Assembly (NCBI GenBank): GCA_041499395.1 | Contig: JBGQKH010000002.1 | Location: 1-53,349, forward strand | Reading direction: 5' to 3' | Source of the DNA: Candidatus Limnocylindria bacterium | GTDB lineage: Bacteria; Chloroflexota; Limnocylindria; QHBO01 | DNA: 53,349 bases | Shown: piece by piece, positions 2-39,447 of the stretch | Numbering within the stretch: position 1 is the first letter of the stretch | How the letters are laid out: each line of letters opens with the position of its first letter | Made by a program: the position numbers and the translations under genes | Notes under the pieces: generated by a model | The model's database searches: none | Seen by the model: only the letters and a program-made list of their open reading frames with translations | Told to the model about the DNA's origin: nothing

Positions 2-730
2 GACGACCTGCTGCCGGTCGCCCGCCGCCTCTATCGGCGGATCCTGGGCGGTGCCCGGCTGGCCGATGTCGAGGCAGGCGTGCTGGGCGTCGTGCGCTCC
101 TCGGACTGTCCGGGCAGCGAGGTGCCCTCGCGCTACTTCGGCTACCTGCGCGGCGGGTCCCCCGACCTGCTGACCGACGTGCTCGACCACAACCTCCAGG
201 ACATCGTCTCCCTGGCGCTCCTCGAGGCGGAGTTCACTCAGCTGCGTGCCGGTGGCTGGCGAGTGGCAGCCGTGCTCGATCGGCACGGGATGGCCGTGGA
301 GCTCCTCCGCCACGGCGCGACCGACGAGGCGCTCGAGGTGGTCGAGGCCGCCATGGCACCCGGCGTCGACCAGGACCGCGCTCACTCCCTGCGACGCATG
401 GCAACCCGACTGCTCCTCAGCGCTGGCGAAGTGGACCGCGCCGAGGCCCTCTGGACCGCGGCTACGCGGCGAGCCTCGACCGATGCCGCCGCCGCCTGGC
501 TCGAGGTCGCCCGCATCCGCGAGCGCCACCGAGGCGACCTGCACGGGGCGCTCGAGGCGGCGGCGACTGCATCCCGCGTCCTCGACGTCGCGTTCGCGCT
601 GGGTCGAGGTGGCGGGATCCTCGCCATCGGCCAGGTGCGCATCAGGGTCGAGGCCAGGCTCCGCCGGTTGCGACGTTGGGTCGCCGCGGCCGAGCGGCGC
701 CGCAACAGGGCGCTCGCAGCGAACGCCTAG
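2..730 (+). CDS. partial CDS (N-terminus outside window): RNase H-fold exonuclease-like C-terminal region plus Ala/Arg-rich helical tail
   Basis: The frame of track ORF 80..730 stays open back to base 2. The HNLQDIVSLALLE segment resembles the last conserved motif of YprB/RNase_H_2-type exonuclease folds, and the rest looks like helical repeats. Family call rests on motif memory only. Confidence 0.4.
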   Translation, partial: DDLLPVARRLYRRILGGARLADVEAGVLGVVRSSDCPGSEVPSRYFGYLRGGSPDLLTDVLDHNLQDIVSLALLEAEFTQLRAGGWRVAAVLDRHGMAVELLRHGATDEALEVVEAAMAPGVDQDRAHSLRRMATRLLLSAGEVDRAEALWTAATRRASTDAAAAWLEVARIRERHRGDLHGALEAAATASRVLDVAFALGRGGGILAIGQVRIRVEARLRRLRRWVAAAERRRNRALAANA

Positions 731-1570
731 CGGCGGGTCCCCAGGTAAGCCGCCGCGCCTTCCATGGCCGCGGCGACGGCCTCTTCGGGGTTCAGGGCGT
801 CAGCGAGGGCGATCGCGAACAGCCCCGCAAAGGCGTCGCCCGCACCGACCGTCGAGATCGCCTCGAGTCGGCGCGGGACGGGCAGGTGCCGGATCCCGGG
901 GCCGCGGTCGATCAGCCAGGTTCCTTCAGCGCCCGTCGTGAGGGCCAGCAACGGGCGCGGGCCGACGGCGGCTCGCAGCGACGCGAGCTGACGCCGTGGG
1001 TTGCCCGCCACATCGTTCAGGGTCGTCGTCGCTGACCACGAGCGCATCGAGGTCGGCGAGCGCCGCAGTGAGCTCGTCGCCCAGCTCGGAGAGCGGCATC
1101 GGTCGGGCCTCGTCGCCCGCGACCAGGCGACGCAGCCACCCCTGGAGCGCGGCCACCCGGGTCGGAATCACCTTGCTGGCCCGTACCGTGGCGACCGGGA
1201 CCTCGCCCGCGACGGGGGCGAGGAGCACGGCCCGCGGGGCGAGGTCCGACAGCTGAGAATCGAGGGCACGCACCATGCTCCCCTTCCCCTCCAGCAGCAG
1301 CCGGCGAGCACCTCCTTCGTGGTGGATGGCGAATCGGATCGACGCGGCCGTGGCCGAGGCGAGGCAGGGTCCGAGCGAGATGAGCTCGGCGACGGCGGCG
1401 CGCGCCTCCGGCTCGGGTCCGGCGGCCGTGATGGTGGCCACCCGTCGGCCGGCGCCGGCCGCCGCCCGCGCTGCGTGCAGCACCGAGCCACCCGCAACCG
1501 TCGAGCCGTCGGCGAGGCGGTCGAGCGTCAGGCCGCCGACGATGAGCAGGTCCGGCCGGCCGGGTATCAT
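727..1570 (-). pseudogene. PfkB-family (ribokinase-like) sugar kinase, split by a 1-nt frameshift near 1020-1023
   Basis: Track ORF 926..1606 gives the N-terminal part (LLIVGGLTLD..., likely start MIPGRPD at 1570). Track ORF 727..1047 gives the C-terminal part with the PfkB signature STVGAGDAFAG. The two frames join as ...DALVVSDDD / LNDVAGNP... at a CCC run (minus strand). Confidence 0.65.
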
Positions 1571-3013: not shown

Positions 3014-3991
3014 CTAGTACCCGGCCTCCAGGTCAACCACGTTCTCGAGCGGCTCTCCGGCGGCGAAGCGGCGCAGGTTGGCCAGGAACAGGTCGAGCGA
3101 GCGATCCACGACCCGGTCGCTCGACCACGAGGTGTGCGGCGTGATGATCAGGTTGGGCGTGTCGTAGAGCGGCGAGTCGGGCGGGAGCGGCTCCTCGTTG
3201 AAGACGTCGAGCACCGCGCCACCGATCCAGCCCGACTCGAGGGCGCGGCGCAGCGCCAGCTCGTCGAGGAGCCGGCCGCGGGCGATGTTGATCAGCCAGG
3301 CGTGCTCGGGCATCTCCTGCAGCTGGGCCGCGCCGATCATCCCGGCGGTGTCATCGGTGAGCGGCGCCGCCACGACCACGATGTCGCTGCGCCGCAGCAG
3401 CTCGTCGAGCTGGTCGAGCCCGAGCAGCTCGACGTTCGGCTGGTCACCGGCCCCGCGTTCCGGGTGCCGGCGGGTCGCCAGCACGTGCGACTCGAAGGGG
3501 ACCAGCAGGCGGGCGACCTCGGCGCCGATGCTGCCGAAGCCGACGATCCCGATCGTCATCCCGCCGAGCTCGGTGCCCCTCAGGGGCTGCCAGGTCCGCT
3601 CGCGGCCGAGCTCCAGCAGCTGCGGAAGCCGCCGAGCGATGGCGAGGCACATCATCACCACGTACTCGGCGATCGGCCGCGAGAAGACCCCGCGGGCGTT
3701 GGTGACGGTCAGGCCCCGCTCGCGCACCACCGGGGTGGCAACGCGGTCGACGCCGGCCGAGAAGGAGTGGATCCACTCCAGCTTCGCGGCTCGGCCGACG
3801 ATGTGATCGAGCACCGACGCCGGCACCCCACCCCGCAGCAGCACTCGCGCCGAGCCGAGCGCCGCCTCGGCGTCATCGTGGACGAGCCCCTCGCGCGACA
3901 TCTGGACGACGCGGACGCCGGGCACCGCCTCCAGTCGCGCCGCGTGCTCGGCGGAGAGCGGCGCGCCGAAGATCGGGGTCGCCAGGATCAC
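3014..3991 (-). CDS. D-isomer-specific 2-hydroxyacid dehydrogenase family, NAD-binding
   Basis: Rossmann motif GIVGFGSIGAEVARLL, followed by NIARG and PHTSWSS motifs typical of the family. Confidence 0.88.
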   Translation of the reverse strand: MILATPIFGAPLSAEHAARLEAVPGVRVVQMSREGLVHDDAEAALGSARVLLRGGVPASVLDHIVGRAAKLEWIHSFSAGVDRVATPVVRERGLTVTNARGVFSRPIAEYVVMMCLAIARRLPQLLELGRERTWQPLRGTELGGMTIGIVGFGSIGAEVARLLVPFESHVLATRRHPERGAGDQPNVELLGLDQLDELLRRSDIVVVAAPLTDDTAGMIGAAQLQEMPEHAWLINIARGRLLDELALRRALESGWIGGAVLDVFNEEPLPPDSPLYDTPNLIITPHTSWSSDRVVDRSLDLFLANLRRFAAGEPLENVVDLEAGY

Positions 3992-4002
3992 GATCTCGTC
4001 GC

Positions 4003-5175
4003 TCAGCTGACGCGTCCCTCCGGTCGGTGCCCCTCGATGCGATCGATCCAGCGCTGCGGATGACGGATCTCGGCCAGATCGGGAAGCGTCGCGGGACCCT
4101 CCCAGACGCGGTTGAGGAAGGCCCGGTCGCGCGCCGCCAGCACGGCCGCCACGAACCGCTCACCGGCGACGTACTGCTCCATCTTCAGGTCGAGCCCCGT
4201 GATGCGCATGATCGCGCGCTCCATCGCGCCGCGCGCCTCGTTGCGCCGCTCGAAGCGCTCGTGGAGCCGCGCGAAGCCGGGCAGCAGCCGCTCGCCGGCG
4301 AAGTTCATGACGTGGTTCGAGTACCCCTCGAGCAGTGACATGAGCGCCTGGGTCCGGCGGAATGACGCGAGCTGGGCGGGGCTCATCATCCGCTCCAGCC
4401 AGTGGCCGCCTCGTCCCCGCAACGCGCCGCGCAGCCGTTCGCCCAGCCCGCCGGAGTCGGCGGCGAGCAGCTCGATCGCCTCGCCAACCGCGCTCGCGAA
4501 GTGATCGCGCAGCCACGGATAGGCCTCGAACTCGAAGGCGTGGGTCGCCTCGTGCAGCGCGATGAAGGTGCGGAACTGGTCGGGCGCGACACCGAGCGCG
4601 GCGGCCGTGACGGCGATGTTCGGCTCCACGAAGTTCAGGCGCCCGCGGACCGAGGGCGAGGCGGCGAGCAGGCTGACGTCGTACTGGCCGAGCACCTTGC
4701 GCGCCAGGAATGCCATCAGCAGCCCGAGCTGCTGGTTGCCGAGAGACCGATTCACGATCCGTGCGACGGCGCGGCCCGGCGTGTCGACTCCGGTCGTCGC
4801 CTGGGTCACGATCCGCTCGACCCGCTCGAAGAGCTGCTCGAAGGTCGCGATGTTCAGGTCGATCCACTCGAGCCGATCGATCACTGCCGGGGTCTCGAGC
4901 GCGCGCGGCAGGTCCGCGCCGATCGCCTCGGCCACCACGGGCTCGATGCGGAGCAGCTCGGCGCGATAGAAGGCCTCAGCCTCGGCTCGCTCGGCGGCGG
5001 TCAGCGTCGCACCCGCCTGCCCGAGGCGGCGACGCGCGATCCGGCGCACCGACTCCCAGTCGATGAGGCGGGTCCCGGCGTGGCGCATCAGCTCGCGCTG
5101 GACGACCGTGGCGCCCATCGCCAGCAGGCCTCCCACGACGATCCCCATCCCGAGCCGGCTGGCGCTGCGTGGCAT
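4003..5175 (-). CDS. DUF2342-type zinc-dependent metalloprotease-like hydrolase (actinobacterial family)
   Basis: HEATHAFEFEAYPWLRDHF (HExxH) plus the overall sequence pattern of the DUF2342 family. Leaderless-type start (see the -10 box at 5182-5187). Confidence 0.75.
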   Translation of the reverse strand: MPRSASRLGMGIVVGGLLAMGATVVQRELMRHAGTRLIDWESVRRIARRRLGQAGATLTAAERAEAEAFYRAELLRIEPVVAEAIGADLPRALETPAVIDRLEWIDLNIATFEQLFERVERIVTQATTGVDTPGRAVARIVNRSLGNQQLGLLMAFLARKVLGQYDVSLLAASPSVRGRLNFVEPNIAVTAAALGVAPDQFRTFIALHEATHAFEFEAYPWLRDHFASAVGEAIELLAADSGGLGERLRGALRGRGGHWLERMMSPAQLASFRRTQALMSLLEGYSNHVMNFAGERLLPGFARLHERFERRNEARGAMERAIMRITGLDLKMEQYVAGERFVAAVLAARDRAFLNRVWEGPATLPDLAEIRHPQRWIDRIEGHRPEGRVS

Positions 5176-5181
5176 GCGCGG

Positions 5182-5187
5182 AGTCTA
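5182..5187 (-). promoter_or_regulatory. -10 box TAGACT, 6 nt upstream of ATG 5175 (leaderless-type promoter); overlaps the murI stop codon
   Basis: The minus strand reads TAGACT-ccgcgc-ATG. The same hexamer occurs upstream of the valS leader, tRNA-Leu and the 13.1-kb non-coding interval. Confidence 0.4.
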
Positions 5188-6017: not shown

Positions 6018-7163
6018 TCAGCGTCGCGCGGCGGCGGTCGAGCGCGAGGGGATCCGTGAGCCGATGGAGGTGGCCATCTGCCGGATCCCCTGCGAGATCG
6101 GCGCCTCGGGGCTCGCCAGCACGAACGGGACGCCCTCGTTGTTGGCGGCGATCACGAGGCGGCCGTCGGAGACGATCTCGTAGTCGATCCGGCGATTGAG
6201 CGCCTCCTCCACATCGGCCTTGCTGAATCCGCCGGTCGAGTCGGATCGGTTGAGGACGGTGGCCAGCTTGGAGGCCGGGTAGCCGATCGCAGCGAACGCC
6301 TCGTCCGCCATCGCCAGGCTTCGGATCGCCATGCTGTCATAGGCAAGCACCTCGAGGATCAGGTCCGATGCGTCGAGGAAGGCGAGCACGTCGTCGGAGA
6401 GGGCAGCGCGGGTGTCGACCACGATCACGTCGTAGATCTGGCGAATCATCGAGAGCGCCTTCTCGATGTCGCGCACCGTCACCATCTCCGCCATCTCGAT
6501 GCGTGGCGGGGCGAGGAGCACGTCGATCCCGGACGGGTCCTTCCAGAGCACGTCGGCCAGGTCGACGTCACGGATCTTATCGGTCGGCAGGTTGACGATC
6601 GACGGTGCCGCCGCCGGGGCGCGAAGGAGGCCGCGCAGGTCGCTGAACTGCATCGATCCGTCGATCAGGCAGACCTTGTGGTCGATGCCGAAGGCGACCG
6701 CAAGGTTGTAGGAGAGGGTCGTGCGACCGACGCCGCCCTTCGGGGAGAAGAGGGTGATCATCGCCGAGGCGTTGCGACCGCCCCCCTCGGTGCTGGCCTC
6801 ATGCACCTTGCGCACCATGGTGGTGAGATCGAAGCCGGAGAAGGGCATCTTCAGGACCGCATCGATCCCGCGCGCCGCATCCTCCGAGATCGGGTTCTGC
6901 GGCACCGTCAGCACGATCACCGAGACGGTCGGCTCGCCGTGGCGAACCTGCTCGGCGACCTGCATCCCAGAGATTCGGCCCTGGAGCAAGGCGTCGACGA
7001 TCAGGACGTCGGGACGCAGCTCGCTGACTGCCGCGAGGGCGTGCTCGCCCGACGTGACCACCTCGAGCATTTTGATCTGGGCCTGGGCCTGCAGCAGCGA
7101 GCGCATGTGCATCGCGACCTGCGGCACATCCTCGACCACCAGCAGCCGGATCTGCTCAGCCAA
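6018..7163 (-). CDS. response-regulator receiver domain fused to a MinD/ParA-type (CpaE/TadZ-like) ATPase
   Basis: The N-terminus (LLVVEDV...DVLIVDALL...KMPF) is receiver-like with acidic pocket residues present. The C-terminal deviant Walker A is FSPKGGVGRTTLSYNLAVAF. Confidence 0.82.
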   Translation of the reverse strand: MAEQIRLLVVEDVPQVAMHMRSLLQAQAQIKMLEVVTSGEHALAAVSELRPDVLIVDALLQGRISGMQVAEQVRHGEPTVSVIVLTVPQNPISEDAARGIDAVLKMPFSGFDLTTMVRKVHEASTEGGGRNASAMITLFSPKGGVGRTTLSYNLAVAFGIDHKVCLIDGSMQFSDLRGLLRAPAAAPSIVNLPTDKIRDVDLADVLWKDPSGIDVLLAPPRIEMAEMVTVRDIEKALSMIRQIYDVIVVDTRAALSDDVLAFLDASDLILEVLAYDSMAIRSLAMADEAFAAIGYPASKLATVLNRSDSTGGFSKADVEEALNRRIDYEIVSDGRLVIAANNEGVPFVLASPEAPISQGIRQMATSIGSRIPSRSTAAARR

Positions 7164-12154: not shown

Positions 12155-12691
12155 CTAGTCCACCGACGGGATCGGCTTCGCTCCCTCGACCGCGATCCGG
12201 ATCGCCTCTGCCTCCTCTTGCGAGAGGGCGTGCGACGACTCGCCACCTTCAACCGGCTTGGCGAAGACGCGGGTCTGCCCTCGCCCATGCAGGCTGCTCA
12301 GCACGATCCCATCTCGCCGGTCATCCAGGAAGGCGATCGCGAAGCTCTGATCCGAGCCGGTGTCATCGAACGGGTTGAAACGCACCAGGCCGACGTGCTG
12401 GAGGCTGCCTCGCGAGCGGACCTCCAGGTACTCGTGCAGCTGGGAGAGCCGTTCGAGCTGTGCGCCCACCTCGACCACCTTGCCGAGGTGCGCGTCGAGC
12501 ACCTGCTGGAGCGACCCGCCCTGGCCGTCGCTGACCAGGCTGCGGTAGGCGTCGGTCGCACGTCGCAGGCGTCGCGCCTGGATCCAGGCGAAGGCGGTGA
12601 GGCCGGTGATGAGGGCTCCGAGCACCCCGACGACGAGCGCCAGGTTGTCCACGAGGGCGCGATTCAGGTCGGACACGGGCGCTGGTATCAT
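12155..12691 (-). CDS. DUF4446 family protein (N-terminal TM, C-terminal conserved domain)
   Basis: HVGLVRFNPFDDTGSDQSFAIAFLDDRRDGIVLSSLHGR... is the characteristic DUF4446 core. N-terminal TM LALVVGVLGALITGLTAFAWI. Confidence 0.78.
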   Translation of the reverse strand: MIPAPVSDLNRALVDNLALVVGVLGALITGLTAFAWIQARRLRRATDAYRSLVSDGQGGSLQQVLDAHLGKVVEVGAQLERLSQLHEYLEVRSRGSLQHVGLVRFNPFDDTGSDQSFAIAFLDDRRDGIVLSSLHGRGQTRVFAKPVEGGESSHALSQEEAEAIRIAVEGAKPIPSVD

Positions 12692-12734
12692 ACCCGCCCC
12701 GATTCGCCCGCCAGCAGCTCACCACGGAGGTTCG

Positions 12735-13106
12735 ATGGCCCGACGAGGCGGCAAGGCGGCCAACCGCCGCGACCGTAACCGACGCGCACAGCGCAAGGCG
12801 CCCCTGCGCCCGGCGGTCCCGCAGCGCCCGACCGGCGGCTCCCTCTCGGATGCGATCGACGCCGCCGCCGAGCGACGCGCCGAGGCCGCCCCGGCCCGCG
12901 CCGCCGCCCCGGCGCCAACGAGGGGTGCGCGATCGGATCCGCGCTTCGCAGTCGCCGGCCCGTCGCGCCTTTCCGAGCGCGCTGCGTCGGAGTACCACTA
13001 CGTGATCCGGGACCTGCGCAACATCGCCGTCCTGGTGGTCGCGATGGGCGTCGTCCTCGTTGGCGCGGTGGTCGGCTTCTCCGCGATGGGGATCGGCCCG
13101 CACTGA
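12735..13106 (+). CDS. small basic protein with a C-terminal membrane anchor (123 aa)
   Basis: GGAGG Shine-Dalgarno 5 nt before ATG 12735. EYHYVIRDLRNIAVLVVAMGVVLVGAVVGF tail. The upstream part of track ORF 12597..13106 was discarded. Confidence 0.55.
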   Translation: MARRGGKAANRRDRNRRAQRKAPLRPAVPQRPTGGSLSDAIDAAAERRAEAAPARAAAPAPTRGARSDPRFAVAGPSRLSERAASEYHYVIRDLRNIAVLVVAMGVVLVGAVVGFSAMGIGPH

Positions 13107-13131
13107 TCCACGAAGGGCGTGCGAAAACCCA

Positions 13132-13160
13132 TTGCAAGCCCCGGCGCCGCTGGCTAGACT
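13132..13160 (+). promoter_or_regulatory. sigma70-type promoter TTGCAA-17 nt-TAGACT firing into a gene-free interval
   Basis: TTGCAA at 13132-13137 and TAGACT at 13155-13160, with an exact 17-nt spacer. It lies 26 nt after the stop of the preceding CDS, and no plausible CDS follows. Confidence 0.5.
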
Positions 13161-13165
13161 CCGCG

Positions 13166-13712
13166 ATGCCGCCCTCACGGCCCGCAAGGTCGTAATCAGG
13201 GGGCGGACGGTACGGAGTCCCGCGGTGACGATTCTGTCGCTCACCCCGAGCCTCCGCCGGGTGCAGGTGAAGTAGGAGGCGGGGATAAGCTCCCGCCCCA
13301 GAGCGTGGCAGGCAGTCTGCCTCCGCCGGAGCGACGCGAGCGAGCCGCAAGCTCGATCGGTCGGCGCTCAGGATCGTTACGGAGAAAAGGGCCAGTCACG
13401 CGAAGGCGACGATCGGGACCGGCCGCGCGCCCTTCGGGGAGCGTCAGAAATCCGATCGGGCCGGCCTACGGCTCCAGGTTCAGTGGCGTGGGAACCACTG
13501 GGCGACTCTGTCAAACGAGGAGTCGCGAAGACCAGCTTGACGGGCACCAGGTGCCAGAGGTCCGAACCGCTTGAGCGGACCCGAGGTTCCAGGAGGTCGG
13601 TCAGGTGAGGCGTCCGAGGTCCGTTCGTCGCCGCCGGCTTACCACCGAACGCTGATGTGCGAACCGAGAGGGTCTGAGGGTCCGTGCGAGATAGGGACCT
13701 TCGGACCCTCAC
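13166..13712 (+). ncRNA. candidate unassigned structured RNA (~545 nt), family unknown
   Basis: The predicted TSS lies just after the promoter above. Many stable local hairpins: a UUCG-capped stem at 13430-13439, and 7-bp stems at 13410-13416/13452-13458 and 13502-13508/13520-13526. Further stems at 13481-13486/13495-13500 and CCGC-UUGA-GCGG at 13567-13578. The interval ends in a 9-bp stem at 13675-13683/13703-13711. No credible ORF, and no RNase P, tmRNA, SRP or B12-box signature found by eye. Confidence 0.35.
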
Positions 13713-13743
13713 GTCATTCCTGGGCCACGCCATTCCTGGGCGG

Positions 13744-14916
13744 CTAGTGGCTGGACGCGGGCAGGTCCACCCCCTCCAACCCGAGCCACGCGGCCAGCGC
13801 CTCCAGCTCAGACTCCACCGCATCGGCGATCGCGCGCGTGAAGTGGACATCGTGGTGGATGGCGTGGACGAGGAGCCGGGACCGCTTGCGGTCCGCGATC
13901 GCATCCACCTTGCCGACGAGCCGATCGTGGTGCAGCACCGGGAGCGCGAAGTAGCCCCATCGTCGCTTGGCCGGGGGCTTGTACATCTCCAGCACGTACT
14001 CGAAGTCGAAGAGGTCGACCGCGCGGGCACGGTCGTAGACCAGGCGATCGAATGGCGACAGCAGCGCCGTGCGCCCTTCGAAGGGCTTGCCGATGGCCTC
14101 GGGATCCACGCGCCACTGTCCCGGGACGCCCTCGACGGTCACCGGCTCGCCAGCGGCGCCGACCACGTTGGGCTCGAGCGGGACGGCGGTCCCCCGCGCG
14201 CGGGCGATGCCGAGTGACCGCAGCCGCCGTTCGTCGCGGATCCGGCGCGCCTCGTCAAGTGGCACGACCCTGGTGCCGGCGGGATAGACCCGCTCGGGCA
14301 CGTCCCACAGGCGCTGGCGCCCGACGCGACCCGCGATGGCGACCTCGCCGCGCGCCATGAGGAACTCCAGCATCTGGGTGACGTTCCGGTCATTCGTCCA
14401 ACCCGTTGACGGCCACGCCACCTGGCTCGTGTCGGGGATGTCGCGGGACAGGAGCGGTCCGGAGGCGCGGAGCCGATCGATCACGTCGCGACGAAATCGG
14501 TCATTCGCCCGCAACCAGTCGCGCTGCTTTTCGTAGCTGGGGAAGGTTGCCATCTCGGCCAGGTGCAGCCCGAGATCCTCCATCGGCCGGATGATCGCGT
14601 TGTGCTCGAAGAGCTCGCGGTCCGCTTCCAGGGCCTGCTGCAGCAGCGCCGGCAGATAGGCCGATCCGAGGCGACTCCAGGCGACCAGGTCGGCGCTCGG
14701 TGCAATGGCGGCCGTCGGGTCGATCTGGAGGATCGTCAGCTGGCGCACGACCGTGAGCAGGTCGGTCGGTCGAGGCGCGTCGAGCATCTGGGCGCGGACG
14801 GCGATGCGGCGAGCATCCGCGAGGTCGAGCCGATGGACGCCGTTACCCGTCGGCGTCCCCTTTTCTCCCTCGCCGCGCCTCGAGGCGCTGCCGCCGGAGC
14901 CGCTGAAGCCGCTCAC
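13744..14916 (-). CDS. YcaQ/AlkZ-like winged-helix DNA glycosylase family (DUF1006)
   Basis: ...FEYVLEMYKPPAKRRWGYFALPVLHHDRLVGKVDAIADRK... is typical of the YcaQ family. Start uncertain: GTG 14916 is chosen, ATG 14787 would cut the conserved N-terminal helix, and the track start is 15006. Confidence 0.75.
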   Translation of the reverse strand: MSGFSGSGGSASRRGEGEKGTPTGNGVHRLDLADARRIAVRAQMLDAPRPTDLLTVVRQLTILQIDPTAAIAPSADLVAWSRLGSAYLPALLQQALEADRELFEHNAIIRPMEDLGLHLAEMATFPSYEKQRDWLRANDRFRRDVIDRLRASGPLLSRDIPDTSQVAWPSTGWTNDRNVTQMLEFLMARGEVAIAGRVGRQRLWDVPERVYPAGTRVVPLDEARRIRDERRLRSLGIARARGTAVPLEPNVVGAAGEPVTVEGVPGQWRVDPEAIGKPFEGRTALLSPFDRLVYDRARAVDLFDFEYVLEMYKPPAKRRWGYFALPVLHHDRLVGKVDAIADRKRSRLLVHAIHHDVHFTRAIADAVESELEALAAWLGLEGVDLPASSH

Positions 14917-16201
14917 CGATCTGCGTCTCGAGCCCCTGGTCACTGGGCTCGTAGAACACGCGTCCGGCCAGGGCGTCGGGCAGGTACTGCTGCTCAACGT
15001 CGGCATCCTCGAAGTCGTGCGGGTAGCGGTACCCCTTCCCGTAGCCGTGCTCCTTTGCCAGGCGGCGGTGCGCGGATGGGCGAAGGTGCAACGGGACCGG
15101 CAGCCTCCCCTTCTCCTCGACCTCGGCCAGGGCCGCGAAATAGGCGGCGCCGGCCCGGTTCGACTTCGGCGCCGATGCGATGTAGGCGGCCGCCTGCGCC
15201 AGGGCGTACTGCGCCTCCGGCAGGCCGATCATCTCGACCGCCTGCATCGCCGCCACCGCGACCTGGAGCGCTCGCGGGTCCGCGTTGCCGACGTCCTCGC
15301 TGGCGGCGATCACGATCCGCCGCGCGATGAAGGTCGGGTCCTCCCCCGCCGCGACCATGCTGGCGCACCAGTAGAGGGCGGCATCTGGATCGTTGCCGCG
15401 CATGCTCTTGATGAAGGCCGATGCCGCTTCGTAGTGCTGGTCGCCGACCCGGTCGTAGGCGAGCAGCCGCTGCTGCGCCGCCTCGGCGATCGCGTCGCGG
15501 GTCAGCGAGCCGGACTCCCCCGCCACCGCGGCGGCCGCCTCCAGGATGTTGAGCGCCTGGCGGGCGTCGCCGCTCGACAGCTCCAGCAGCGCGGTCATGC
15601 CCTCCTCGGCGACGGCGACTCGACCTGCGAGTCCACGCTCGTCGGCGAGCGCCCGCAGCACGATCTCGCGCACCTCGTCGGGACCGTGCGGCTCGAGGCG
15701 GTAGACCCGCAGCCGGGAAAGCAGCGGAGAGTTGATCTCGTAGTAGGGATTTTCGGTGGTTGCGCCGATCAGCACGATGGTGCCGTCCTCCACGTGCGGC
15801 AGGAGCGCGTCCTGCTGGCTCTTGTTGAACCGATGCAGCTCGTCGATGAAAACGACCGTCCGTCCCCCCGCCTGGCGCAGCGCCTTCGCGTCGGCGACCA
15901 GCGCCCGGATGTCCGCCACGCCGCTGGTGACCGCGGAGATGGGGCGCCACGTTCCGCCGGAGCGATCGGCGAGGAGCCGGGCGAGCGTCGTCTTGCCGGA
16001 GCCGGGCGGCCCCCACAGGACCATGCTCGGGGCGTAGCCGGGCTGCACGACGCGGGTGAGGGCGCCATCGGGCCCGACCAGGTGGTCCTGCCCGACGAAC
16101 TCCTCGAGGCTGCGGGGTCGCATCCGGGCCGCGAGCGGGGCTCCGGCCTCGGGCGCATCGACGAAGAGGGGCTCGGTGACGCTCGGCGGCTTACGCGGCA
16201 T
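14843..16201 (-). CDS. rarA: replication-associated recombination protein A (AAA+ ATPase)
   Basis: LARMRPRSLEEFVGQDHL, Walker A WGPPGSGKTTLARLLA, VVFIDELHRFNK, and the MgsA C-terminal domain YDRVGDQHY...SAFIKSMRGSD-like. Start taken at MPRKPP (16201), with GGAG 7 nt upstream. Confidence 0.9.
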   Translation of the reverse strand: MPRKPPSVTEPLFVDAPEAGAPLAARMRPRSLEEFVGQDHLVGPDGALTRVVQPGYAPSMVLWGPPGSGKTTLARLLADRSGGTWRPISAVTSGVADIRALVADAKALRQAGGRTVVFIDELHRFNKSQQDALLPHVEDGTIVLIGATTENPYYEINSPLLSRLRVYRLEPHGPDEVREIVLRALADERGLAGRVAVAEEGMTALLELSSGDARQALNILEAAAAVAGESGSLTRDAIAEAAQQRLLAYDRVGDQHYEAASAFIKSMRGNDPDAALYWCASMVAAGEDPTFIARRIVIAASEDVGNADPRALQVAVAAMQAVEMIGLPEAQYALAQAAAYIASAPKSNRAGAAYFAALAEVEEKGRLPVPLHLRPSAHRRLAKEHGYGKGYRYPHDFEDADVEQQYLPDALAGRVFYEPSDQGLETQIGERLQRLRRQRLEARRGRKGDADG

Positions 16202-32770: not shown

Positions 32771-33012
32771 CGGTTGGCCTCCCTTTTCGCCACGCAACAA
32801 CACGACCCGCTCGTCGAAGGACGAACGGGTCGTGGTACCACCTTCGTTCGGCGACATCGGCCCGGCCGATGCTGCCCTCATTGCCGCGCTATCGGGCGGA
32901 CCCGGACGGCTCGCGTGCGACCTTCTCCCTCTCGTGCCGGGGCGGGCTTGCAGCCTGCGACCCGCCGTCTCTCGCGGTCGGTGGAGGGGTACTCCTCACG
33001 GTCGGCGCCGTG
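32771..33012 (-). promoter_or_regulatory. T-box leader (tRNA-Val sensing) upstream of valS
   Basis: Minus strand contains the T-box core GAAGGUGGUACCACGACCC at about 32826-32846. A 14-bp hairpin ACGACCCGUUCGUC/GACGAGCGGGUCGU follows at about 32802-32833, then GUUGUUG. An AGAGA box lies early in the leader. The candidate specifier loop GAGAAG-GUC-G carries a Val codon followed by a purine. Confidence 0.7.
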
Positions 33013-33018
33013 GGCGGG

Positions 33019-33047
33019 AGTCTAGCACCCGCCATGCGCCACGTCAG
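33019..33047 (-). promoter_or_regulatory. promoter CTGACG-17 nt-TAGACT for the valS T-box leader
   Basis: TAGACT at 33019-33024 and CTGACG at 33042-33047 (minus strand), with a 17-nt spacer. The -35 overlaps the stop codon of the upstream gene. Confidence 0.45.
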
Positions 33048-38767: not shown

Positions 38768-38802
38768 ATCGACGCATGGACGGCGGGTGCCGTCGGGGGA
38801 GT

Positions 38803-39447
38803 CTAGCGCGACGACCAGCCGCTGTACCGGCTCGGCTCCGGTTCGCCCCGCACTGCCGAGCTTGGCCCGCCTGGCTTGGCCTGCTCGGCAGGAGCCGGCT
38901 CGATCGGCGTCGTAGCCTTGGGCGACCTGGCCGCCGGCTCGTTCGTCAGGAAGCGCGCGATCGCCTTGCGGGCGAGCGCCGCCGCGATCAGGGTCAGCGC
39001 TGTCTCGGCGGCATTCCAGGCGGTTCGCTGCGGGCCGGGCGGGCCCTCGACCATCTGCCGTGCCAGTTCCTTGCGCGCCTTCTTATCCCTGATCGGGTCG
39101 CGCCGCCAGCGGCGAAGCTCCTCGACCACCTCGTCTCGCACGGCCGACGACCGCGAACCTGCCTCCCCGGCGAGCGTATCCACCCACGCCTGCATCGTTT
39201 TCGGCAGCGCGTCGTAGGCCTCTTCGGCCGCGTGCGGCGCCATTGTCCCGCGCAGCAGGCGCGCCAGCCGGCGCGGCCCGCCGACCACCAGGAAGGCGGT
39301 TGCGGCGCCGATCCCGATCACCACCCCTGGGTTCTCGCGCACCCGCTTCCGCAGGTCGAGGGCGTCGCGCAGGCGCGCCGCCGTCGCCTCCAGCTCCGCG
39401 CGCTGAGCCGCGATCTCTACCCGCGTCTGATCAATCGTTTCGCCCAC
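38803..39447 (-). CDS. DUF3618 domain protein
   Basis: The N-terminus MGETIDQTRVEIAAQRAELEATAARLRD followed by a TM (VVIGIGAATAFLVVG) is characteristic of actinobacterial DUF3618 proteins. Usual pairing with the holin-X-like gene upstream. Confidence 0.78.
   Translation of the reverse strand: MGETIDQTRVEIAAQRAELEATAARLRDALDLRKRVRENPGVVIGIGAATAFLVVGGPRRLARLLRGTMAPHAAEEAYDALPKTMQAWVDTLAGEAGSRSSAVRDEVVEELRRWRRDPIRDKKARKELARQMVEGPPGPQRTAWNAAETALTLIAAALARKAIARFLTNEPAARSPKATTPIEPAPAEQAKPGGPSSAVRGEPEPSRYSGWSSR

Follow-up and report, generated by a model that had tools for sequence, protein, structure and literature searches.

What may be encoded in 637 bp that separate two convergent genes, and that appear to carry no gene themselves, is the question raised by this locus of a Limnocylindria-type Chloroflexota genome. 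The stop codons delimiting the gap (13104-13106 on the + strand and 13744-13746 on the − strand) belong to a small gene for a 123-aa protein (small123) and to an AlkZ/YcaQ-like gene, respectively. In a first-pass annotation of the window (the whole stretch of 53,349 nucleotides that was analysed) the interval 13107-13743 had been described as gene-free and had been read as a candidate large structured RNA of no assigned family. The absence of genes is borne out by the positions of the stop codons and by the public gene calls for the same contig, in which the 637-bp gap is likewise empty; furthermore, none of the seven ORFs of the gap gave a Pfam match at E≤1.

A single-copy, syntenic and repeatedly lost locus

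Eighteen further copies of the RNA, full or partial, were recovered from Limnocylindria-type Chloroflexota metagenome-assembled genomes and metagenomes, one at each locus; the 53-kb window itself contains no second one. Three of the 11 metagenome matches (L015, L020 and L023) were rejected, being chance pattern matches inside protein genes. The copies are 75-95% identical, fall into approximately two main clades and occupy a constant syntenic slot, in the order DUF4446 (−), small123 (+), the RNA (+) and then MgsA (−), and they diverge in step with the flanking genes (r = 0.67-0.79). Except in L018, where two opposite-strand genes are found between the two while promoter and RNA are intact, small123 is followed by the RNA at a distance of 10-30 nt. 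The product of small123 has an Arg-rich N-terminus and a C-terminal transmembrane helix; no Pfam family could be assigned to it, a single weak, sub-threshold match to the SCO2400 family being obtained. Annotation of the neighbours with Pfam, NCBIfam and PADLOC returned generic DNA-repair and housekeeping functions (a UvrD-type helicase-nuclease, DUF4446, an AlkZ glycosylase and MgsA), with no defence system and no RNA-related protein, and the neighbours give no hint of what in particular the RNA does.

The RNA is not universal within the lineage. At least five related loci lack it, with clean empty sites; they are scattered through the tree and are interspersed with filled ones in the trees of both MgsA and DUF4446; small123 is kept in all five RNA-less loci, and the RNA-less genomes keep MgsA too. 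The scattered, clean absences therefore indicate repeated loss of the RNA, which is probably dispensable. The picture is that of a single-copy, syntenic and vertically inherited RNA, several times cleanly lost and, as far as sampled, confined to a group of uncultured soil and groundwater Chloroflexota, the records from these environments including GCA_041481525.1, JACPOU01, CAWEDO01 and DASSIB01.

The slot itself is an indel hot spot, in which AlkZ, an ArsR/AHSA1 pair and other genes have been gained or lost among loci. Clean, repeated loss is also the pattern to be expected of a mobile insertion.

Conservation boundaries, promoter and predicted transcript ends

The conserved block spans ~600 nt, from the promoter (13132-13160) through the terminal hairpin and a short tail (~13721). 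Averaged over pairs of copies, identity is 85.3% within the RNA and drops to 42.6% and 37.3% in the spacers that adjoin it; the sharp limits of conservation fall at the predicted promoter and at the terminal hairpin. The adjacent protein genes are no better conserved than the RNA, which is on average 86.5% identical as compared with 83.0% for MgsA DNA, and which exceeds DUF4446 in conservation in 34 of 36 pairs. Thus, the block is under strong purifying selection, and the check for conservation in relatives that had been suggested at the outset finds both sequence and structure strongly kept in 18 of them. The block cannot encode a protein; no ORF or start codon is common to all copies, and 110 of the 121 indels are of 1 nt. 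These features, along with the lack of Pfam matches, leave no sign of the decayed gene that had initially been considered.

The promoter that had been proposed to face into the gap, TTGCAA-17 nt-TAGACT, was confirmed in its position, and both its −35 and −10 elements are kept in the 17 aligned copies (table 1). The −35 hexamer is found as TTGCAA, TTGACC, TTGCAT, TTGCGC or TTGAAT, and its distance from the −10 element is always 17-18 nt, so that the architecture is kept despite differing −35 sequence and spacer length; the sequence 5′ of the −35 element is, by contrast, unconserved. The site scores 8/12 against the Escherichia coli consensus, and is for this reason below the reach of a generic promoter/terminator scanner, which reported nothing in 12500-14500, including no canonical U-tract terminator. 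In the whole 53-kb window two sites of the form TTGnnn-16..18-TAnnnT reach at least 8/12, and TTGCAA-17-TAGACT is one of them. The same −10 hexamer had been noticed before a T-box leader and a tRNA-Leu, and it is indeed present 5 nt upstream of the former (a sub-threshold leader at 32814-33014, − strand) and 33 nt upstream of the latter. The RNA is predicted to have its own sigma-70-type promoter, the conserved −35/−10 pair of which coincides with the boundary of the block.

The 5′ end of the predicted RNA was set from the −10 element (±3 nt) and the 3′ end from the point at which conservation stops (±5 nt). As for the 9-codon ORF that had been pointed out as potentially leaderless after the −10 element, it is present, but its ATG is not conserved among the homologues.

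Table 1. Positions in the window of the predicted RNA, its structural elements and its upstream neighbour.
Feature	Position	Strand	Remarks
small123, 123-aa protein, upstream neighbour	12735-13106	+	conserved syntenic anchor of the RNA
−35 element TTGCAA	13132-13137	+	TTG invariant in 17/17 aligned copies
−10 element TAGACT	13155-13160	+	identical in 16/17 copies; TACACT in L011
Predicted ~555-nt structured non-coding RNA	13167-13721	+	conservation, consensus fold, G-U excess
5′ hairpin H1/H2, at predicted transcription start	13169-13206	+	four covarying pairs; same shape in every homologue
H4/H5 long-range closing helix, 5′ strand	13223-13241	+	provisional
Domain A, stacked H6-H8 around three hairpins	13245-13391	+	conserved pairing
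Domain A hairpins H10, H11 and H12 domain	13275-13299; 13305-13326; 13329-13369	+	consensus fold
H14/H15 hairpin	13411-13457	+	covariation, individual folds, invariant runs
Adjacent hairpins H16 (13458-13474), H17 (13480-13501) and H18 (13502-13526)	13458-13526	+	99-100% of cells paired
Long irregular hairpin H19-H21	13535-13606	+	~96% of cells paired; shared architecture despite many differences
H4/H5 long-range helix, 3′ strand	13609-13633	+	pairs with 13223-13241; provisional
Short hairpins H22 and H23 around invariant AACGCUGAUG	13635-13661	+	covariation
Terminal hairpin H24, 15-16 bp, ~−34 kcal/mol, without U-tract	13668-13710	+	98% of cells paired
Single-stranded 3′ tail ACGUCRUUCC	13711-13721	+	in all full-length copies; conservation stops right after
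16-nt tandem duplication of the 3′ tail, CACGYCATTCCTGGGC twice	13710-13741	+	specific to this genome

Substitutions preserve a common multi-domain fold

The substitutions found among the copies preserve a common fold of the + strand, with multiple domains and more than 20 helices. For the consensus structure an energy of −203.0 kcal/mol was obtained, as against −128.1±8.2 kcal/mol in 120 phylogeny-preserving null alignments, for each of which the structure was predicted again (z = −9.1, 0/120). Canonical pairs are formed in 97.6% of 2426 cells, as opposed to 34-51% when the partners are slid, and double changes are found in 55 cells versus 23±4 in shuffles. When the structure predicted from the window copy only is used, pairing survives at 48% of the affected pairs, against 35% in the null (at most 39% in 1000), and the double changes are 66 versus 26. 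Taken alone, the 12 pairs that show double changes are not a significant number, since 11 of the 120 tree-aware nulls reach it; independent compensatory events are found at few pairs, in a sample that is narrow and correlated (two main clades).

The strand is fixed as + by the excess of G-U cells (322) over A-C cells (28). The single-sequence folding energy is marginal with respect to shuffles (z = −1.8 for the + strand and −0.9 for the − strand), and the case therefore rests on the comparative data, in which each domain adopts a matching fold from copy to copy, indels being compensated and apices remodelled. All-against-all column covariation was uninformative, as the two-clade phylogeny makes many unrelated columns co-vary; the tree-aware null was built because of this confounding effect.

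At the level of single helices, H1/H2 covaries at alignment columns 19/49, 23/40, 24/39 and 26/37. In domain A, a change from G-C to A-U is found in H10 (127/144), and three outer-stem pairs of the H12 domain, the apical loop of which is either GCAA or AAAA, show double changes. In H14/H15 the UUCG tetraloop (13433-13436) and the internal loop ACCGGCC (13418-13424) are both invariant, and pairs 279/294 and 282/291 are each found as A-U, G-C and other standard pairs. Covariation is also present at 313/325 and 358/376 in the H16-H18 region and at 492/504 in H22/H23, which alternates between G-C and C-G (nine versus six copies). The inverted repeat of H24 was found directly as well; homologues carry compensating 1-nt deletions in this hairpin, and in three lineages its apex is remodelled to give an extended stem with a GCAA loop. 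H24 is likely to be the transcript end or a 3′ protection element.

Some helices are ambiguous: a local hairpin can take the place of H4/H5, H9 and the outer stem of the H12 domain are alternatives to each other, and a CCGC/GCGG pairing competes with H21. The 17 pairs of H4/H5 are formed in 96-99% of cells, with variation limited to G-U wobble; the alternative local hairpin, within 13227-13240, is as compatible with the alignment and shows one double change.

Several of the stems listed in the first-pass annotation are part of this fold and are conserved in the homologues: those at 13410-13416/13452-13458 (with the UUCG hairpin), 13481-13486/13495-13500 and 13502-13508/13520-13526 are H14/H15, H17 and H18, respectively, and the terminal one at 13675-13683/13703-13711 belongs to H24. 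The stem drawn at 13567-13578 (CCGC/GCGG) exists, but it competes with the pairing of H21. The 10-nt direct repeat noted after the terminal stem is also present, but it is in reality the 16-nt, strain-specific tandem duplication of table 1 (units 13710-13725 and 13726-13741), found as a single copy in all homologues.

Nature of the RNA, rival explanations and known relatives in kind

With a probability of approximately 75%, the segment 13132-13721 of the + strand is a free-standing gene whose product is a highly structured, non-coding RNA of ~555 nt; the family is undescribed and, within the sampling, found in one Limnocylindria-type lineage only. The initial reading of an unassigned large structured RNA is supported: the refuting checks suggested with it on Rfam, on conservation in relatives and on a decayed gene were carried out or approximated, and all came down on its side.

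It is unlikely that the block is, instead, part of the small123 mRNA, as a long structured 3′ UTR, or that it is a convergent antisense regulator of MgsA or AlkZ. It does begin 10-30 nt past the small123 stop in almost all loci, there is always a convergent gene opposite, and read-through is conceivable as no U-tract terminator is present. However, a conserved −35/−10 pair is placed between small123 and the RNA, preceded by an unconserved spacer, L018 has the two split by opposite-strand genes, the convergent partner varies with the locus (AlkZ, MgsA or other genes), RNA-less genomes keep both small123 and MgsA, and 555 nt of conserved multi-domain structure go far beyond the needs of a UTR or of a terminator. 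That a conserved promoter belongs to the block also argues against non-autonomous mobile or selfish DNA (a MITE-like insertion, an orphan cassette or the remnant of an integrated element) lodged between convergent genes, with hairpins that would be incidental or act at the DNA level. This origin is quite improbable, the more so as terminal inverted repeats were not found, two conserved 20-nt patterns had no match in IMG/VR viral contigs, and blastn in ‘distant’ mode against plasmids and phages gave none; the asymmetry of G-U over A-C argues, in turn, for pairing at the RNA rather than the DNA level. It would account for the patchy distribution among close relatives with perfectly clean empty sites, the mixing of empty and filled loci in the MgsA and DUF4446 trees, the indel-prone slot (AlkZ, the ArsR/AHSA1 pair and other genes) and the CTAG seen at both junctions in some loci. 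The last is, however, merely the result of overlapping stop codons, and the RNA is always found in the same syntenic position, as one copy per locus and per genome match with none elsewhere in the 53-kb window, and with a divergence that follows that of the flanking genes. As to a decayed gene, an unrecognised small-protein gene or a GC-rich spacer with chance hairpins, these are largely refuted, with hardly any probability left to them. Any sequence of 68% G+C folds well, the single-sequence z-score is −1.8, and the gap accommodates several ORFs of 40-120 codons; on the other hand, the block is conserved twice as much as the adjoining spacers and equally to the coding neighbours, 1-nt indels dominate with no common ORF or start codon and no Pfam matches, and the structure is preserved far better than in tree-aware null alignments.

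Very unlikely, too, is an extremely divergent form of a known RNA (RNase P RNA, tmRNA, 6S/Ms1, SRP RNA, OLE, ROOL, GOLLD or an ORF-less group II intron), to which the single copy and the strong promoter, as in housekeeping RNAs, and a few short strings might point. The first-pass annotation had found no known family (RNase P, tmRNA, SRP and others) and had proposed a check against Rfam; in agreement with it, cmscan of 13000-13850 with the 4227 families of Rfam 15, HEARO, raiA, group I introns, T-boxes and riboswitches included, gave no match at the gathering threshold or at E≤10, the divergent copies L013 and L016 gave inconsistent, unrelated chance matches only, and ARAGORN found no tmRNA in the window. 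Furthermore, the 5′ and 3′ ends are unpaired, unlike those of RNase P RNA, tmRNA and SRP RNA, and repeated loss is incompatible with an essential RNA. No described RNA of the same kind was found in the literature on Limnocylindria or Chloroflexi.

Among the look-alikes that were discarded, GGAGGAAAGGG and CGGGCUUACC recall CR-I and CR-V of RNase P RNA, but on inspection their order is wrong, they cannot pair with each other to make P4 and they stand in another context, and the unpaired ends (no P1) and the lack of an Rfam match also speak against this RNA. CUGAUGA recalls the hammerhead core, but is without stem II or a GAAA context. GUGCG, near the left end of the gap (13118-13122), would be of interest for an ORF-less group II intron, but it falls in the unconserved spacer 5′ of the promoter, outside the block; the terminal hairpin is a 15-16-bp stem and not a domain V, and no Rfam intron matched. 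CsrB-like GGA repeats were also considered, and the 13 GGA found are close to the ~12 estimated by hand from base composition.

For the predicted RNA, the best guess is a stable, trans-acting structural RNA. Its own promoter would drive transcription from ~13167, where the 5′ hairpin has its foot, and the transcript would end at, or be trimmed back to, the very stable terminal hairpin, to give a nuclease-protected stable RNA. Acting in trans, this could work through its three-dimensional shape and, like OLE, raiA, ROOL or GOLLD, serve as a scaffold that binds proteins or assembles with itself. A cis-regulatory leader is disfavoured because no gene is present downstream on the strand of the RNA, and a simple antisense RNA would not be the case either. 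An accessory, condition-dependent role may be envisaged since relatives survive without the RNA.

The closest parallel in kind may be sought in OLE RNA (RF01071), which belongs to the Firmicutes and partners with the membrane protein OapA. The two RNAs are alike in length (~550-600 nt), in their many conserved helices, in being lineage-restricted and in adjoining the gene for a small membrane protein; they differ in that no sequence or structure match is found, in the phylum (here Chloroflexota) and in the promoter, which the Limnocylindria RNA is predicted to have as its own, being separable from small123 (L018). The obligate co-occurrence of RNA and partner genes to be expected of an OLE-like RNP is not seen here, with small123 persisting in five RNA-less loci and lying apart from the RNA in L018. 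OLE is a large ornate RNA for which homo-oligomers have been described by cryo-EM, and ROOL and GOLLD form RNA-only multimeric assemblies (PMC12286853). With the latter two the Limnocylindria RNA shares large size, ornate structure and patchy distribution, but it occupies a fixed chromosomal slot and has no viral, phage, plasmid or Rfam match. ROOL and GOLLD are typically tied to prophages, tRNA clusters and mobile contexts. The 6S and Ms1 RNAs are rod-like hairpins of 180-300 nt with a central bubble; they are comparable in that they stand alone, are stable and have a strong promoter of the housekeeping type, as is predicted for the RNA described here, but differ from the multi-branched fold with more than 20 helices found here, for which no Rfam 6S match was obtained. 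The raiA RNA is ~200 nt long. The raiA motif is an independently transcribed, abundant structured RNA that has been investigated for its structure (PMC11706538, PMC12968392), present in thousands of species (PMC12968392). The likeness lies in independent transcription of a structured RNA (predicted only, for the Limnocylindria transcript), and the difference in the ~555 nt of the latter, its apparent restriction to one lineage and the lack of an Rfam match.

Bacterial non-coding RNAs of more than ~500 nt with conserved intricate folds are rare, and, to our knowledge, each of the large ones (rRNAs, RNase P, group I/II introns, OLE, GOLLD, ROOL and HEARO) is a catalyst, an RNP core or an RNA-only assembly. 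It is possible, if rather doubtful, that the present RNA founds a new class of large ornate RNAs that function via an elaborate tertiary or quaternary architecture (an RNA-only multimer, a new ribozyme or an RNP core); if so, this would be one native to an abundant, uncultured soil and groundwater lineage. The Limnocylindria are a widespread class of uncultured Chloroflexota for which we know of almost no RNA biology. The family is apparently lineage-restricted and dispensable. With no detectable relative and a compact gene, running from promoter to terminal hairpin, it is a clear-cut target for structural study and for genome comparison, in which the close relatives that lost the RNA represent natural knock-outs.

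Locus, boundaries and probable promoter

The interval 13107-13743 (637 bp) is bounded by two stop codons, one of the gene for a 123-aa protein (small123, + strand) and one of an AlkZ/YcaQ-like gene (- strand). That no gene lies between them, as the first-pass annotation had stated, is borne out by the public gene calls for the same contig (GCA_041481525.1, a Chloroflexota MAG), which leave the 637 bp empty too. The G+C content of the interval (~68%) equals that of its surroundings, and the + strand has an excess of purines. The mechanical ORF of the AlkZ/YcaQ-like gene (13744-15006, - strand) would encode 420 aa; 14787 is the start in the public calls and in most homologues (about 347-366 aa), so its 73 N-terminal codons are probably not translated.

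The AlkZ protein finds its best matches in 'Candidatus Limnocylindria'/Chloroflexota MAGs. Syntenic loci were fetched via the neighbouring proteins, and GTDB species genomes and JGI metagenomes were then scanned with two invariant 20-21-nt strings of the element, giving 18 further copies (L003, L007, L009-L014, L016-L019, L021, L022, L024, L025, L029 and the identical L001/L002). They are 75-95% identical to the window, a narrow sample from one lineage, partly since the collection scans require exact 20-nt matches, and are full length (about 570 nt) except where a contig end cuts them. Each matching genome or contig carries one copy, and no second one was found within the 53-kb window. The gene order is in every case DUF4446 (-), small123 (+), element (+) and MgsA/RarA (-), with AlkZ wedged in to the right of the element in the window, L003, L007 and L009, and other genes wedged into the order in L011-L013. 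In L018, an AHSA1/SRPBCC-like gene (177 aa) and an ArsR-type HTH regulator (127 aa), both identified from ORF translations rather than by family search, lie between small123 and the RNA promoter (6181-7036, - strand); given this inserted pair and the variable presence of AlkZ, the RNA slot is an insertion/deletion hot spot. MgsA and a UvrD-like helicase are broken up over several frames on two long ENA contigs (L003, 2500-4000; L029, 1090-2473 and 4693-7597), probably by indel errors of long-read assembly, so that single-base indels of these two copies are unreliable.

Conservation begins at the -35 hexamer and stops about 10 nt past the terminal hairpin, the mean pairwise identity being 42.6% in the 22 nt from the small123 stop to the -35, 63.8% in the promoter, 85.3% over 13167-13721 and 37.3% beyond. 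The DNA of the element is, on average, better conserved than that of MgsA (86.5% versus 83.0%), and more than that of DUF4446 in 34 of 36 pairs. The motif TTGCAA-17-TAGACT is found at 13132-13160 as first annotated: the TTG of the -35 never varies, 16 of the 17 copies have TAGACT exactly, and the spacing is 17-18 nt, even in a clade with a TTGACC -35 and an unrelated spacer sequence. TAGACT recurs elsewhere in the window, 5 nt ahead of a sub-threshold T-box leader (39 bits, E = 3e-5) and 33 nt ahead of tRNA-Leu, and only one site of the window besides that at 13132 fits TTGnnn-16..18-TAnnnT at ≥8/12. On account of the conserved elements and spacing, the company of TAGACT and the rarity of fitting sites, 13132-13160 is likely to be a real promoter; the predicted 5' end falls at about 13167, two nt before the first conserved helix.

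TAGACT occurs five times in the window, in four cases as gcTAGACTcc ahead of a gene or an RNA gene, a pattern pointing to an extended -10 motif that is characteristic of the organism. The T-box leader match itself (32814-33014, - strand; 39.1 bits versus an Rfam gathering score of 93) may be a divergent Chloroflexota T-box.

As far as can be judged from sequence, the element is shown to be non-coding. Pairwise comparison with the window gives 121 indels, 110 of them of 1 nt and 10 of 2 nt; no ORF of ≥40 codons is common to all copies, the ORF sets vary from copy to copy, and the ORFs of the gap have no Pfam match at E≤1. A 9-codon ORF noticed earlier does not hold up, its ATG being missing outside the window's own clade. 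At 13710-13741, a 16-nt tandem duplication (CACGTCATTCCTGGGC / CACGCCATTCCTGGGC) repeats the conserved 3' tail of the RNA; because the unit is single in all homologues, the comparison identifies it as a recent strain-specific slip.

Features of the RNA locus, -10 sites of the window and positions of RNA-less sites in related loci
Feature	Position	Strand	Remarks
small123 gene	12735-13106	+	123 aa; Arg-rich N-terminus, one C-terminal transmembrane helix
AlkZ/YcaQ-like DNA glycosylase gene	13744-14787	-	
gcTAGACTcc sites	5182-5187, 33019-33024, 38800-38805	-	TAGACT positions
gcTAGACTcc site	13155-13160	+	TAGACT position
5' hairpin	13169-13206	+	RNAalifold consensus
Long-range helix closing three domains	13223-13241 with 13609-13633	+	RNAalifold consensus
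Domain A	13245-13391	+	RNAalifold consensus; three hairpins
Run of four hairpins	13411-13526	+	RNAalifold consensus; includes invariant C(UUCG)G
Long irregular hairpin	13535-13606	+	RNAalifold consensus
Two short hairpins		+	RNAalifold consensus; between 13606 and terminal hairpin in fold order
Terminal hairpin	13668-13710	+	RNAalifold consensus; 15-16 bp, then conserved tail
Empty site, L004	~4996-5005		
Empty site, L005	~5070-5094		
Empty site, L008	~1654		
Empty site, L026	~3079-3082		
Empty site, L027	2858-3089		

Consensus fold and its controls

Folding of the window sequence by itself is weak (z = -1.8 for the + strand, -0.9 for the - strand) and would settle nothing. The stems listed in the first-pass annotation are all present in the window sequence, and the RNAalifold consensus of 16 full-length copies has 152-155 pairs in about 24 helices. 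Standard pairs occupy 97.6% of 2426 cells, a share that drops to 34-51% if the 3' partners are shifted by 1-3 columns, and both sides have changed in 55 cells, versus 23±4 after shuffling (0/500 reach this value) and 4-10 in the shifted controls. Folding every copy domain by domain leads to the same shapes and brings out events hidden by the MAFFT columns: compensating 1-nt deletions in both arms of the terminal hairpin, an apex remodelled in three lineages into an extended stem with a GCAA loop and, in the UUCG hairpin, three to four compensatory pairs. Three assignments are ambiguous: H4/H5, the long-range closing helix, versus a local hairpin at 13227-13240; helix H9 versus an outer stem 13329-33/13365-69; and helix H21 versus CCGC/GCGG. 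G-U cells far outnumber A-C cells (322 versus 28), so that pairing holds for the + strand alone, which argues for hairpins acting as RNA, not DNA, and agrees with the promoter orientation.

The sample consists essentially of two major clades, so that unrelated columns can co-vary as well, and two less circular tests were therefore run. When the structure was taken from the window sequence alone and the substitutions of each homologue were moved randomly among positions with the same base (1000 runs), affected pairs were still canonical in 48% of cases versus 35% expected (maximum 39% in 1000), and double changes numbered 66 versus 26±5. In an R-scape-style null, the substitutions of an NJ tree were re-dealt branch by branch to random columns and the consensus was re-predicted for 120 null alignments: the consensus energy is -203.0 versus -128.1±8.2 kcal/mol (z = -9.1), canonical cells 97.6% versus 95.6±0.4% and double-change cells 55 versus 26±9, with 0/120 nulls reaching any of these values; the number of covarying pairs taken by itself (12 versus 8.8±2.3 in this null) is not significant.

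Relation to known RNAs, inheritance and possible role

The first-pass annotation had recognized no known RNA family in the interval, and cmscan of 13000-13850 against all 4227 families of Rfam 15 likewise gives no match at E≤10. Two divergent copies return only unrelated, inconsistent chance matches, ARAGORN finds no tmRNA, and literature searches brought up no such RNA described for this lineage. Short likenesses to RNase P (GGAGGAAAGGG, CGGGCUUACC), to the hammerhead core (CUGAUGA) and to a group II 5' end (GUGCG) all fail on context. Elsewhere in the window (1343-1431, + strand), ARAGORN calls an 89-nt tRNA-Ile(GAT) that the Rfam tRNA model does not match even at E≤0.5; either the tRNA is unusual or carries an intron, or the call is a false positive. 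The closest analogues in size and complexity are the orphan 'ornate' RNAs OLE, ROOL and GOLLD, all of which assemble into RNA-only homo-oligomers (PMC12286853), together with the raiA motif RNA (PMC11706538, PMC12968392), the resemblance being one of kind and not of homology.

What is shown is a + strand element that is under constraint, structured and non-coding, and that begins with a conserved predicted promoter and ends with a very stable hairpin; the probability that it represents a genuine structured RNA gene belonging to a new family is put at about 0.85. Any one specific mode of action is, by itself, doubtful. The predicted primary transcript would be of about 555 nt, with 5' and 3' hairpins that may stabilize its ends.

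The element is wholly missing at five related loci (L004, L005, L008, L026 and L027/L028). At the first four of these, the two convergent genes run directly up to or into each other, and one CTAG supplies the stop codons of both; at L027/L028, MgsA is separated from small123 by a further 305-aa gene and a 231-nt spacer. These loci are scattered among the filled ones in the MgsA and DUF4446 trees, a distribution for which both mobility and repeated loss were considered. Since the element diverges in step with its flanks (r = 0.67 and 0.79), no recovered copy lies at any other site, it has no terminal inverted repeats, and searches of viral contigs, phages and plasmids gave no relatives, mobility is not favoured and the pattern is read as vertical descent, the element having been cleanly lost at least four times independently from an indel-prone slot. 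Such repeated loss implies an accessory role. Cis-regulation is unlikely, because no gene follows the RNA on the same strand, the facing gene varies among loci, and the RNA is intact when apart from small123.

The size of the RNA, its more than 20 helices and the invariant loop and junction strings (ACCGGCC, UUCG, CCUA, CAGGU, ACGA, GCUU and UGAUG) suggest that selection acts on a three-dimensional shape, which would point to an RNA that either self-assembles or serves as a scaffold for protein binding. By analogy with OapA for OLE, the Arg-rich, membrane-anchored small123 protein is a natural candidate partner of the RNA, a link made weak by the retention of its gene in every RNA-less locus.
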